In this document: positions 19,222 through 50,498 of the stretch, piece by piece
Layout: each line of letters starts with the position of its first letter
How positions within the stretch are numbered: position 1 is the first letter of the stretch
Origin: Syntrophales bacterium
Lineage (GTDB): Bacteria; Desulfobacterota; Syntrophia; Syntrophales; UBA2210
DNA length: 64,000 bases
Direction of reading: 5' to 3'
Assembly (NCBI GenBank): GCA_963662405.2
Contig: CAXXKT010000003.1
Location: 96,001-160,000, forward strand
Notes under the pieces: model-generated
Databases searched by the model: none
What the model saw: only the letters and a program-made list of their open reading frames with translations
Told to the model about the DNA's origin: nothing
Made by a program: the position numbers and the translations under genes

Positions 19222-19560
19222 TCACGCGAAGACATCGATCAGCGATTTTTTCATCTCCCCGTCGGTCTCGATGACCGTGATATTGGCGCTGTGGGCGTGT
19301 TGTGTCGTAATGAGATTGACCAGTTCCACCGGGAGATTGACATTCGACGATTCGGTCCCGTCGGGCTGTGTCGTGCCGGGGGTGTCCTCCTCGGTGATCG
19401 TCACCGAGACGCCGGGGACTTCACCGGTCTGAAAGAGGGCCCGGCTTGCCTTGAACTCATCCGTGTTGATATTCGCGATGTTGTTGGCTGTCACGTCCGC
19501 TTTTTTTTCAAGGGTCTTGAGGGCGGATACGGCAATCTGCGCGGCGGGAGCCTCTAACAT
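19222..19560 (-). CDS. Short flagellar basal-body rod-like protein (FlgC/FlgE-like termini)
   Basis: TANNIANINTDEFKAS N-terminus and SNVNLPVELVNLI...AN C-terminus. Confidence 0.8.
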   Translation of the reverse strand: MLEAPAAQIAVSALKTLEKKADVTANNIANINTDEFKASRALFQTGEVPGVSVTITEEDTPGTTQPDGTESSNVNLPVELVNLITTQHAHSANITVIETDGEMKKSLIDVFA

Positions 19561-19622
19561 CTTCCTTCTCCTATAAAAAGTCAATTCATGGAGAGCCTGT
19601 CAAACAGGCCCATGGTTAAAAT

Positions 19623-20735
19623 TTAAACGGCCAAAGCATAACACCTCGCAACCTTACTCATCTCTACATATTTCGGGTCTGGCAGCATTTTCGATGGATC
19701 AAACGGCTCCCCCTTCTTCAAGATGGCATATACAATAGTGCTCATCTTTCGCGCCGTCGCTATTACGCTCTTCCCGGTTCCCTTGTTCTCTTTCATGGCT
19801 TTGTATTTGTACATAAGCCAATATCCATCGGTTTTATTCCGAAGCCGTAGCATCCCCATTACCATTTGCACAAAAGCCGTCCTCAGTTCCACGGGGCCTC
19901 GCTTGGTAATATGACCATGGCGAATGGTCTTGTTGGAGTTTTGAACCCATGGTACCAAACCGGCATGAGCAGCATACTGCTTGGCGCTCTCATATCGGTT
20001 GATGTCATCGGTATAAGCCCGAATCGTCGCTGCTGTTATTATTCCAACGCCAGGAATCGTTTGCAACAGAGCAACATCCTCGTCTTCAGAAACAAGATCA
20101 GATAATACGCGCTCAAGTCCTTTGACCTCGGATGCAATTTGGTCTATTGTACCAAGAAGCGGTTTTACCGCTCGGGCAGCGTTTCCGTAACTCCTATGGT
20201 CCGCGAGACCGTCAAGGATTCGCTGCCTTTCTTTTTTGCTCTGCAGCTGTCCCCGCCGACTCTCTATCCCATATCCAAGCAATAAACCGTGTATCTGGTT
20301 TTTCAAGGATACCAAAGCTTTCACCAGAACAGAACGTGACTTGAGAAGCCTTCGAATGTCCTCGCTTTCCTGCGAACAAAGAATGGACTCGGGAAGCATA
20401 TCTTTCTCAAGAAACTCAGCCAATGTGCGGGAATCATGCTTGTCAGTCTTTTTTACTGACTCATTTACAACCTTGAATTTCAAGGTGTTCACTATCTTGA
20501 CCTCAATCCCCGCCTTCAAAAACCGGTTGCGAAAGTGTCGGGTGTTCCCTGTTGATTCCACCGCTGCCGTGACCTCGTAACCGCCCTCATTCCAGTTGGA
20601 CACCTTCATGATAAATGCCCGGTAACCTCGATCAGTCGTCGGGTAGATGCCCGACTCCTGAACACTCCGATCTTCACTCAAACAACAAACGGTAAACTGC
20701 GTCTTGTGAAGGTCAACCCCGATACTCATCTTCAT
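19623..20735 (-). CDS. IS110 family transposase/recombinase (DEDD)
   Basis: GVDLHK, VES, KTDKHDS, TIPGVG, GLVP..QNS, HITKRGP, ATARK. Confidence 0.95.
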   Translation of the reverse strand: MKMSIGVDLHKTQFTVCCLSEDRSVQESGIYPTTDRGYRAFIMKVSNWNEGGYEVTAAVESTGNTRHFRNRFLKAGIEVKIVNTLKFKVVNESVKKTDKHDSRTLAEFLEKDMLPESILCSQESEDIRRLLKSRSVLVKALVSLKNQIHGLLLGYGIESRRGQLQSKKERQRILDGLADHRSYGNAARAVKPLLGTIDQIASEVKGLERVLSDLVSEDEDVALLQTIPGVGIITAATIRAYTDDINRYESAKQYAAHAGLVPWVQNSNKTIRHGHITKRGPVELRTAFVQMVMGMLRLRNKTDGYWLMYKYKAMKENKGTGKSVIATARKMSTIVYAILKKGEPFDPSKMLPDPKYVEMSKVARCYALAV

Positions 20736-20769
20736 AGAACGCCTCCTCACATCTTGGACAGCGCCTGTC

Positions 20770-20935
20770 AGGTGAATTGGTCCCAATCTCCTATTCGATC
20801 TCGAAGATCATTGAATGTTGCGGCTACAGCTCTTCATTCTCCTTTGCGGTCTCGAAGACCAGTAAACATGTCGAACAGTAGCCTTGCTGCCCAAAACTAT
20901 AAAGTTTCAAACAGTGTATCCCAATTCACAGCTCA
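20770..20935 (-). ncRNA. Putative IS110 bridge/seek RNA
   Basis: Two similar loop modules around GATC-TCGAA-GATC and GGTC-TCGAA-GACC hairpins, with flanks matching the donor and target junctions; outer pairing GTGAATTGG/CCAATTCAC. Confidence 0.65.
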
Positions 20936-20960
20936 TGAAGACTTTTTATCATTCCTCCTT

Positions 20961-20996
20961 AAATAGGGACAGCGCCCAATTATCGACTTGACCCCT
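20961..20996. repeat. Single RAYT-associated repeat AAATAGGGACAGCGCCCAATT facing a divergent TTGACCCC arm
   Basis: Matches the RAYT-flanking repeat; abuts the IS110 end. Confidence 0.7.
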
Positions 20997-21005
20997 TATG
21001 GGCAT

Positions 21006-22280
21006 TCACGCGAAGGTATTCAGCAGGGAACCGAGCAGTGATTGCTGCAGCAGGTCTGCCGAAGCGGTATAAATGGAATCGGCGAACTCCGTGTTGATGG
21101 CTTCGGCTTCCGTGGCGTAATTGAGCGGTGAATTGGTCGCTATCTGCGAGGTGTAGTTGCTTACCTGAACGGCGAGCCCGTCGAACCCGGCGAACAGCTC
21201 TTCAACCGCTGACGGGTCCTCACTGATCGCCTCGGCCAGCAGCTCTTCGTCGACCACCAGTGTCCCGTCTTCATCCACCGTGATCCCGATCGATGCAAGC
21301 TCGTCCTCATGATCCTCGATAAAGGAGGTCACCGTGGCGAGGACCTCGTTCGCGATGTAATCGCTGTTTTCCTCCAGGTTACCGATGAATGAATTCAGTC
21401 CCGAAACGAGACCGGTGACGGCGTCCCGGAACTCTTCCTCATCGGGGGCAACCGTCAGGACCGCTTCGCCCGTCCCCTCCAGGGTGGCCGTGATCATTCC
21501 CTCGTCGAGATAGACCGTATTGGAACTCGATGTCTTATCCACGCCGTCGACGCTGTACGTGGCGTCCCGGGCGGCGGTGGATACGGCGGCTGCGCCCGTC
21601 GCTGTGACGGCGTTTCCCGATACATCAGCGATCGAAAAGGCACTCGCCGCGCCGGTCTCGTCGGCAGTGACGGTCAGATTTACCGTCCCCTCTTCGCTCC
21701 CGTCGGTGACCGCGGCGCTCACCCCGATATCCGCGTCGTTGATGGCGGTGGCGATCTTCTGGAGGACCTCTTCGTTGGTGTCCCCCTCCTCGACCGTCAC
21801 GCTCAGATCGTGTTCTTCCCCGCCGACCGTCACCGCAAAGGTGTTCGTTCCCGTATCGACGGTGCCGGCGGCATCCTCGTCCAGCTCCAGCCCGGTGTTC
21901 TCCTGGGCCGCGGCCACCTGGGTCACGGAAATGCTGTACGTGGCCTCGGTCGCCCCCGAATCGGCGGAGAAGGCGTCCGCGGCCTCGGCCGTCACCACGT
22001 CGCTATCCGACGAAGAGGCCGTCCGGTCATGGAAAACGGAGGTATAGTCGTCGCGGGTCAGTTTCTGCGCCTTCGCGGCGAGGGATGACACATTGCCGTA
22101 CAGCTCGCTGAGGGCCTCCCGGGACTCTTTGCTGAATGCCTGTTCATCGAACTGATCCTGCAGGTTTCCGAGGGCCGAGGTGAAGACACCCATCACCAGA
22201 TTGCTGGCGCTGCTCACCCCCAGAGGAGAGAGCAGACTGGTCATCGTCATGTAATTATTGTAGGAACCGGTTATCTGCAT
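21006..22280 (-). CDS. FliD-like (flagellar cap-like) protein
   Basis: TASSSDSDVVTA, YSISVTQVAAAQ, ARDATYSVDG..SSSNT, LASIGIT..DGTL..D..L..A....P.AV.ELF; very acidic. Confidence 0.7.
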   Translation of the reverse strand: MQITGSYNNYMTMTSLLSPLGVSSASNLVMGVFTSALGNLQDQFDEQAFSKESREALSELYGNVSSLAAKAQKLTRDDYTSVFHDRTASSSDSDVVTAEAADAFSADSGATEATYSISVTQVAAAQENTGLELDEDAAGTVDTGTNTFAVTVGGEEHDLSVTVEEGDTNEEVLQKIATAINDADIGVSAAVTDGSEEGTVNLTVTADETGAASAFSIADVSGNAVTATGAAAVSTAARDATYSVDGVDKTSSSNTVYLDEGMITATLEGTGEAVLTVAPDEEEFRDAVTGLVSGLNSFIGNLEENSDYIANEVLATVTSFIEDHEDELASIGITVDEDGTLVVDEELLAEAISEDPSAVEELFAGFDGLAVQVSNYTSQIATNSPLNYATEAEAINTEFADSIYTASADLLQQSLLGSLLNTFA

Positions 22281-22300
22281 GGCTGCATCCCCTTCAGGCA

Positions 22301-22336
22301 ATAAAAAATCCGCCTCCCCAAGACAGAAAGACGGAC
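22301..22336 (-). terminator. Intrinsic terminator, riboswitch expression platform
   Basis: Minus strand TCCGTCTTTC...GGGAGGCGGA followed by TTTTTT. Confidence 0.65.
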
Positions 22337-49696: not shown

Positions 49697-50433
49697 GGAC
49701 AGCGCCCATTTATTGCTTGCGGGGTCTTCCCCGAGGGCGGACACTGAGCGACCTTCCCAGAAGCGCCTCAATATCCTTTCTGAATTTTTCATCCCCGCAG
49801 GGCCTGCCTGACAGGGCACTTGTCCTTAATCGTTCGACGACTTCCGGTGATTCGGTATCACTGAGATACCGGGACCAGTCATCAATCTCGTCACAGAGAT
49901 GACAGGTCTTCGAAAGAATGTTATCCGAGGTGACCCCGCAGTGGCCACGAGCGCTCGACCAGGGATAGTCTTCGGGGGCGTGGACTGCTCCCGCGCGTAC
50001 CGGGTTGTTTTCTACGTAACGGATCGCAGCGTAAAGATGCCTTTCGTCAAGAATACTGGAATAAAATCGCCCCTGCCAGAGGTATCCGGTTATCCCCTTC
50101 TTGCGGTTGTAATACTGCGAGTATCGCATATGGAGGGTATTGAGGGTCCGGGCAAGTGAATCGTCCTTCCGGGGGACGCACACAAAATGAACATGATTGT
50201 TCATTAAGCAGTACGCCCAGATCTCCAGGGAATATTTCTCCGCGTATTCCTTGAGCCATGCGAGGTATTGACGGTAGTCCGTATCCGATTCAAAGACGGT
50301 CTGCCGGTAGTTTCCCCGCTGGGTTACATGGTACGGATAATCTCTGGCAATGATTCTCGCGACTCGTGGCATGATGTAAAGTCTATGACATGACTCTCAA
50401 GCTGTCAATGAAAAATGGGCGCTGTCCCTATTT
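49691..50433 (-). mobile_element. RAYT locus bounded by inverted AATAGGGACAGCGCCCATT repeats
   Basis: Repeats at 49691-49711 and 50411-50433 flank the transposase. Confidence 0.85.
49710..50372 (-). CDS. REP-associated tyrosine transposase (Y1 HUH)
   Basis: YHVTQRGN, LMNNHVH, WQGRF, YVENNPVRAG, YPWSS, RGRPRK tail. Confidence 0.92.
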   Translation of the reverse strand: MPRVARIIARDYPYHVTQRGNYRQTVFESDTDYRQYLAWLKEYAEKYSLEIWAYCLMNNHVHFVCVPRKDDSLARTLNTLHMRYSQYYNRKKGITGYLWQGRFYSSILDERHLYAAIRYVENNPVRAGAVHAPEDYPWSSARGHCGVTSDNILSKTCHLCDEIDDWSRYLSDTESPEVVERLRTSALSGRPCGDEKFRKDIEALLGRSLSVRPRGRPRKQ

Positions 50434-50498
50434 AAGGCCTCTTTTCTCTTGACAATCCTGTTTTGGGTCACTATATTCCAAAAAGACGATATGGAGGC

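Follow-up and report, generated by a model that had tools for sequence, protein, structure and literature searches.

A candidate bridge RNA in the upstream end of an IS110-family element found at Shine-Dalgarno sites

The window, a 64,000-nucleotide stretch of contig CAXXKT010000003.1 from a Syntrophales bacterium, carries on its minus strand an insertion sequence of the IS110 family. We conclude that this element very probably encodes its own bridge (seek) RNA in the 220-nt end that lies upstream of its recombinase gene, with a target loop and a donor loop serving as guides, and that it looks active. In the mechanism we propose, the 3' side of the target loop (AAAGGAG) would pair, on the bottom strand, with the seven nucleotides to the left of the crossover, which are a Shine-Dalgarno sequence, and the 5' side of the same loop (CAU plus six nucleotides) would pair loosely with the top strand to the right, so that CAU would face a start codon located about 7 nt downstream. 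The donor loop, the second of the two modules and predicted to lie in a multiloop, would read the ends of the element itself, its 3' side (AUAGGAG) the last seven nucleotides and its 5' side (CAUUC) the first five. Every copy would run in the same direction as the gene that it precedes, with the right end restoring an AGGAG before that gene, a step that the flanks partly show. Transcription of the RNA, its binding by the recombinase, the position of the exchanged core (probably AG, which the other strand reads as CT) and the part played by the start codon are inferences.

The element, its copies and its relatives

The insertion sequence is 1387 bp long (19568-20954, minus strand) and is present in nine copies in the host genome, all 100% identical, whose flanks diverge exactly at the ends. 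Its terminal letters are TATAGGAG, and its non-coding ends measure 219 nt on the left, where the RNA modules lie upstream of the recombinase gene, and 55 nt on the right. With AGGAG present in the left flank (20959-20955) as well as at the right end (19572-19568), the boundary may be shifted by as much as 5 nt. Contigs from two marine-sediment metagenome runs (one study) join 19567 to 20955 and skip the intervening 1387 nt, with five letters that fit either side; they are the empty site in related populations. These contigs show no circle junction. The original prediction had reconstructed both the empty site and the circle junction, and both follow from the ends as set by the nine copies, the empty site being present in the metagenome contigs as well.

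In the window, the element has a fliD-like gene (21006-22301) on one side and a flagellar rod-type gene (19222-19560) on the other. At its right end, AGGAG (19568-19572, minus strand) lies 7 nt ahead of the latter gene's ATG (19560) and takes the place of the displaced host ribosome-binding site. The left flanks of the nine copies terminate in AAGGAG without exception and in AAAGGAG in eight; compared with the target guide, the copy in the window agrees at six of seven positions (T for A at -7) and the other eight copies at all seven. The right flanks differ from the first base onward. Downstream of seven copies a reading frame that opens with ATG and codes for 71 aa or more begins at +6 to +10; one of the remaining two has an ATG at +7 with a frame shorter than 50 aa, and the other has no start within 20 nt. 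From these flanks and reading frames we conclude that the element occupies Shine-Dalgarno sites, always co-directionally with the gene, and that its right end re-supplies AGGAG. The stretch 50410-50437 (locus L010), 28 nt and 93% identical to host DNA just upstream of the element (about 20984-20957), is a short host repeat without relation to it.

The recombinase gene (19623-20735, minus strand) encodes 370 aa, in which a DEDD RuvC-like and a Tnp domain are recognised by Pfam as DEDD_Tnp_IS110 (PF01548, E 8e-19) and Transposase_20 (PF02371, E 3e-20), and the protein matches the solved IS621 and ISCro4 transposase chains with E of about 1e-18. Residues D8, E60, D98, D101 and S267 align with D11, E60, D102, D105 and S241 of IS621, whose roles we take from the passages on these residues in Hiraizumi et al. 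(2024, PMC11208158), and all five are invariant in 21 relatives. Pairwise, the match to IS621 scores 61.6 bits over residues 200-352, the N-terminal domain aligning poorly (5.5-7.9 bits), and IS4321 is 26.6% identical over residues 5-290. Judged by its Pfam domains and aligned catalytic residues, the recombinase is intact, as the original prediction had supposed.

Relatives of the recombinase are numerous, with 3696 at E ≤ 0.001 among the 8000 scored. We fetched the loci of 80 of the 88 relatives confirmed from genomes and of 80 of the at least 277 confirmed from metagenomes. They contain 149 recombinase starts, 128 of which have a recognisable left end (the pattern G-NNN-GATAAA preceded by GAG; right ends were located by GACnTTTTAT close to them); the other 21 genes, which are truncated, degenerate or of a distant clade, were left out. 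The recognisable ends reduce to 85 distinct left ends, and to 83 lineages once two with deletions are set aside (L055, and L058 with its single hybrid loop). The window contributes one of the 80 sequences in the RNA alignment and the other 82 lineages contribute 79; those dropped are L168, on account of an insertion, and L046 and L170, which nearly duplicate L039 and L161. A long non-coding region lies upstream of the recombinase in the window and in all relatives fetched.

The relatives provided several observations in their own right. A full-length recombinase, 75% identical, lies on a 32.8-kb plasmid record of Thiospirochaeta perfilievii, and the family therefore travels on plasmids too. 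One Spirochaetia genome has 15 copies, some of which (L019, L020 and L026) stand directly behind short stretches, about 110-145 nt upstream of the full element, that start like a left end and finish like a right end; these look like miniature derivatives. In the same genome, where the target guide reads UUAGGAG, the donor's own end ATAGGAG stands at 9 of the 15 sites (left flanks of L017, L020 and L026). In L058 (1327-1510) about 80 nt are missing from the left end, so that the 5' side of the target loop is fused to the 3' side of the donor loop; a one-loop RNA results, and the AAAGGAG flank is still present. L033 (1263-1300 and the right end) carries its terminal 29 nt or so (ending GACTTTTTATAGGAG) in two tandem copies, which may be the remnant of a second insertion. 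Nine lineages from metagenomes (L140, L141, L147, L148, L156, L158, L163, L164 and L165) have target guides that no longer spell a ribosome-binding site, and the flanks of several of them contain short tandem repeats of the target motif, for example CACGGAG units on both sides.

The guide loops and the DNA they would read

The two loop modules had been read from the window alone by the original prediction, and the strings that it quoted are all present on the minus strand, with one coordinate, the start of module 1, off by 1. Module 1, the target loop, consists of a 5' side ACATGTTTACT (20871-20861) followed by GGTC (20860-20857), TTCGA (20856-20852), GACC (20851-20848), GC (20847-20846) and AAAGGAGAA (20845-20837). 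Module 2, the donor loop, consists of CATTC (20817-20813), AAT (20812-20810), GATC (20809-20806), TTCGA (20805-20801), GATC (20800-20797), GA (20796-20795) and ATAGGAG (20794-20788).

The 3' side of the target loop contains AAAGGAG (20839-20845), which has the same sense as the left flank, would pair with the bottom strand and covaries with the flank. When the guide is defined as the seven nucleotides before an invariant A-N-U-G, it equals the left flank at -5, -6 and -7 in 74, 71 and 61 of 75 lineages, compared to shuffle means of 59, 51 and 25, and the observed values are reached in 0 of 5000 shuffles, a figure that overstates independence because the lineages are related. The count of distinct variants is safer: 14 different 7-nt target guides occur over 105 distinct insertion sites, with 77 sites matching at all seven positions, 26 with one mismatch and 2 with two. 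Agreement at -1 to -3 is by construction, because the left-end pattern requires GAG, and there is no covariation signal at -8 or -9 in the 75 lineages. The original prediction had matched a longer stretch of module 1 to the empty site. The AAAGGAG part of that match is borne out by the covariation, whereas the extra 'AA' after AGGAG is due to chance: it does not vary among relatives, and its agreement with the first flank base, at 44 of 101 sites, is just what the frequency of A there would give. The flanks identify host genes' Shine-Dalgarno sites as the target. Natural reprogramming is visible among the lineages, some of which now have targets other than ribosome-binding sites.

The 5' side of the target loop, CAUGUUUAC (20862-20870), complements top-strand DNA on the right of the insertion point, and its CAU faces a start codon at +7 to +9. 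Pairing guide base N_j with flank base j gives a complementarity of 0.455, compared to 0.30-0.375 at six other shifts; in this best register the base next to the U-G closing pair is opposite flank base +1. Flank positions +3, +4 and +5 lie above shuffles (values reached in 6, 0 and 0 of 3000), and positions +1, +2 and +6 give no signal above them. The first ATG stands at +7, opposite the guide's CAU, in 47 of 101 sites; an ATG is counted as in register in 45 of 101 sites and in two of the nine copies in this genome. The register of the donor loop, in which guide base j+2 would face flank base j, was tried for the target loop and rejected (0.325 against 0.455). The partial match that had been proposed for this left guide thus becomes a loose pairing in the register set by the start codon, and we suggest that the 5' side tracks the right flank and the start codon weakly.

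The 5' side of the donor loop, CAUUC (20813-20817), complements the first five nucleotides of the element, GAATG (20954-20950), and over 83 lineages 408 of 415 cells are Watson-Crick pairs (shuffle mean 366, maximum 382, observed value reached in 0 of 3000). Eight different end 5-mers are involved; 77 lineages are fully Watson-Crick, 81 are fully paired with G:U allowed and two have one mismatch. The 3' side, AUAGGAG (20788-20794), has the same sense as the last seven nucleotides of the element (19574-19568) and is identical to them at all seven positions in 74 of 78 lineages, with one mismatch in three and one lineage unparsed owing to an insertion; in two lineages a compensatory AGAAG is found in both the donor guide and the element end. 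Covariation with the first five nucleotides and identity with the last seven uphold the original prediction that CATTC and ATAGGAG read the joined ends. That prediction had also staked itself on the loops changing with the insertion sites, and over 73-83 lineages their letters do so.

In L140 and L165, two related lineages, AG is all that target (..CGGAG) and donor (..AGAAG) have in common, which points to AG as the probable core. Neither top-strand guide covers this proposed core. Core pairing by the top-strand guides was considered and rejected, as the two positions before the first base of the element are paired in 1 of 83 and 10 of 83 lineages. The registers of the target loop and the donor loop differ by 2 nt, a point against the proposed reading.

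The fold of the RNA and the joining of the ends

Both loops are built around an inner hairpin, UGGUC-UUCGA-GACCG in the target loop (20847-20861) and UGAUC-UUCGA-GAUCG in the donor loop (20796-20810). Across the alignment these are paired in 99.0% and 99.8% of cells, and four of five and three of five pairs, respectively, change on both sides, the donor hairpin for example from G-C to A-U in 33 sequences. The target loop is closed by an outer stem, GGCUACUGUUC (20883-20873) with GAGCUGUAGCC (20832-20822), paired in 89.4% of cells and with 6 of 11 pairs changing on both sides. A further helix, GUGAAUUGG (20929-20921) with CCAAUUCAC (20780-20772), is paired in 74.5% of cells, with six of nine pairs changing on both sides. 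Inside it lie a 5' hairpin, the target stem-loop and the donor hairpin, which places the donor guides in a multiloop. The complete structure of 47 pairs is paired in 84.3% of cells over 80 sequences, compared to 27-45% when the partners are slid, and 34 of its pairs are compensatory; 0 of 500 shuffles reached any of the measures, although shuffles overstate independence among related lineages. The homologous ends, to which the original prediction had pointed as a check, thus have conserved helices. The two stems that it named, GGCTAC (20883-20878) with GTAGCC (20827-20822) and GTGAATTGG (20929-20921) with CCAATTCAC (20780-20772), are present and occur in the minimum free energy fold. That fold, computed from the single sequence, has a z-score of -1.6, with 14 of 200 shuffles folding as well; since it is no better than shuffles, the case for the structure rests on the relatives. 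A scan of 19400-21200 with Rfam returned no family even at E ≤ 1.

One region has two possible partners. Within 20751-20914, the segment 20898-20887 can pair either with 20914-20903, as a local hairpin, or with 20761-20751, as a long-range helix. The local hairpin is 84% and 73% paired, and the long-range helix 90.0%, with 10 of 11 pairs changing on both sides. The long-range helix crosses the helix 20929-20921/20780-20772 and ends 2 nt before the ribosome-binding site of the recombinase gene. This alternative may act as a switch in folding or as a processing signal, or may form a pseudoknot.

The ends of the element carry subterminal inverted repeats. The left repeat, ATAAAAAGTC (20940-20949), was read from the sequence and overlaps an extended -10 element (TG at 20951-20950 and TAAAAA at 20948-20943, minus strand); the right repeat, GACTTTTTAT (19582-19573), and a -35 box, TTGACT (19584-19579), together span 19573-19584 and face outwards across the joined ends. 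The perfect repeat is 10 bp here and 6-11 bp across 80 lineages, and TGATAAAAA occurs at the left repeat in 70 of the 80. Joining of the ends would build a predicted promoter, TTGACT, 17 nt and TG-n-TAAAAA, which the relatives partly show: across the joined ends TTGACT is present in 72 of 80 lineages (the right-end search pattern fixes part of this box), the 17-nt spacer in 80 of 80 and TG-A-TAAAAA in 70 of 80. The coding strand of the element has no convincing terminator. An internal promoter-like site (20924-20896, 9 of 12 matches), for which no conservation was apparent by eye in the relatives, was given no weight.

Rival readings and relation to known elements

The covariation of loops and DNA bears directly on how the site is chosen. 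AGGAG is a common motif, and the left end carries a likely translational leader with alternative helices beside the recombinase's ribosome-binding site, so one could suppose that the site is chosen by the protein, or by host factors at ribosome-binding sites, and that the leader's AGGAG stretches are copies of the ends, either regulatory or fossil, and not guides. We consider this very improbable, because internal stretches about 110-165 nt inside the element change with the flank (14 variants) and with the first five nucleotides (8 variants), and variants in step of this kind are predicted neither by copying of the ends nor by a fixed protein preference. A narrower reading, unlikely on balance but less so, is that only the 7-nt Shine-Dalgarno half-site is read; the match to the start codon would then follow from the location of such sites, and the loop's 5' side would have some other role, such as protein contact. 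Only two of the nine genomic copies have an ATG in register, one has no start nearby, and ATG pairing at +7 to +9 amounts to 125 of 219 compared to a shuffle mean of 119.9 (reached in 553 of 5000), so it is not above shuffles. Against this reading stand the covariation at +3 to +5 (0-6 of 3000 shuffles) and the peak of the register test at a single shift; CAU is absent in eight lineages whose target guides are not Shine-Dalgarno sequences (CACGGAG, CGCGGAG, CGCAGAG, GGGGAG and TAGGGAG), and in the same register the guide of L163 pairs at seven of nine bases and that of L164 at five of nine.

The original prediction had compared the RNA with that of IS621, and a guide arrangement of the IS621 type (the IS110 group in the narrow sense) has to be weighed too. 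The RNA lies upstream of the recombinase, the recombinase matches the IS621 and ISCro4 chains, and the order of a target loop followed by a donor loop, as in IS621, stands. The polarity of strands and sides does not: it is opposite to that of IS621, the sides being swapped in both loops in all lineages examined. Together with the presence of a 10-bp subterminal inverted repeat and top-strand guides that leave the AG beside the crossover unpaired in all but 1 and 10 of 83 lineages, this makes an IS621-like arrangement very improbable. We retain the reading of two guide loops with the sides reversed.

In the sections of Siddiquee et al. (2024, PMC11187229) that treat the IS1111 family, seekRNAs of this type have a guide order reversed relative to the IS110-type ISEc21, and the family is characterised by subterminal inverted repeats, usually of 11-13 bp, by terminal extensions of 7 and 3 bp and by a non-coding region downstream of the gene, with a few upstream-RNA exceptions such as ISMtsp17. 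The corresponding sections of Durrant et al. (2024, PMC11208160) give 7-17 bp for the IS1111 subterminal repeats and place the donor guides in a multiloop in many orthologues. As the IS1111 seekRNA elements ISEc11, ISKpn4, ISPst6 and ISPa11 are described in those sections, the present element resembles them in having the complement of the top strand 5' of the match to the bottom strand in both loops, in its subterminal inverted repeats, predicted joined-end promoter and natural reprogramming, and in extensions of 5+5 = 10 nt, which would equal 7+3 if the AG core were counted on the left (an inferred split). It differs from them in the RNA upstream of the recombinase gene, in a perfect repeat of 10 bp rather than 11-13 bp and in a target that is a ribosome-binding site. 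With IS621 and ISCro4, as far as the relevant parts of PMC11208160 and PMC11208158 describe them, it shares the RNA in the left end, the target loop before the donor loop, an inner hairpin in each loop flanked by two guides for opposite strands, the catalytic DEDD and Ser residues and, with IS621, a proposed core that reads CT on one strand; unlike IS621 as described there, it has its guides on swapped sides and without overlap on the core, donor guides in a multiloop and long subterminal repeats.

Set against the family definitions, the element has the DEDD/Tnp-Ser recombinase, the structured RNA and the loops covarying with target and joined ends (weakly for the right flank) of RNA-guided IS110-family elements. 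The long left end, short right end and RNA in the left end are those of the narrow, IS621-like IS110 group, and the order of the guide sides is not; conversely, the guide order and the subterminal repeats with short extensions are those of IS1111, and the long non-coding region is not downstream. Guide order, subterminal repeats and end lengths thus appear IS1111-like and the position of the RNA IS110-like, in an assignment for which the recombinase was compared pairwise only.

A distant clade (Lentisphaeria, Victivallales and other records), with recombinases 31-37% identical, appears to have the same layout and the same target. Read by eye, its flanks end in ..AGGAG, stretches of (C/U)AUAGGAG and others resembling AAAGGAG occur in the RNA upstream, and the first bases of the element, ATGGT, are faced by ACCAU or ACCGU.

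IS900/IS901-type mycobacterial IS110 elements insert in a single orientation between a ribosome-binding site and the start codon, which is the same insertion place as that of the present element; to our knowledge, no guide RNA has been read in them. We found no literature link between bridge RNAs and ribosome-binding sites in a search that covered sources other than the supplementary target lists of Durrant et al. and Siddiquee et al.; in the parts of PMC11187229 where the term 'ribosome-binding site' occurs, it denotes that of a cloned resistance gene.

Taken from its sequence and its relatives, the programmable recombinase-RNA pair appears real, as the original prediction had proposed, though not unprecedented. 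The description of bridge and seek RNAs dates from 2024, and only a few of them have been tested. In the present family the natural code is directly readable and can be checked on 14 naturally reprogrammed target guides, and its geometry differs from that of the IS621 tool in its swapped sides, non-overlapping guides of 7 nt and 5-9 nt and multiloop donor. It offers an RNA-level explanation for insertion at ribosome-binding sites, of which a genome has thousands and where the downstream gene need not be silenced, and its mixture of IS110 and IS1111 diagnostic traits bears on how the RNA moved between element ends.

More tentatively, as a possibility that we take seriously without yet favouring it, we suggest that the element represents a widespread clade (Spirochaetia, Desulfobacterales, Lentisphaeria and other records) of IS1111-type geometry in which the bridge RNA has moved upstream. 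Its target loop would read the whole translation-initiation region, both the Shine-Dalgarno sequence and, on the opposite strand, the spacer with AUG, and its copies would lie co-directionally in host transcription units, be transcribed by read-through and give the downstream gene a new ribosome-binding site. If this is true, the mutually exclusive helices by the recombinase's ribosome-binding site may couple folding of the RNA to translation of the recombinase, and the element would have evolved to exploit the most abundant conserved motif of the genome with little harm.
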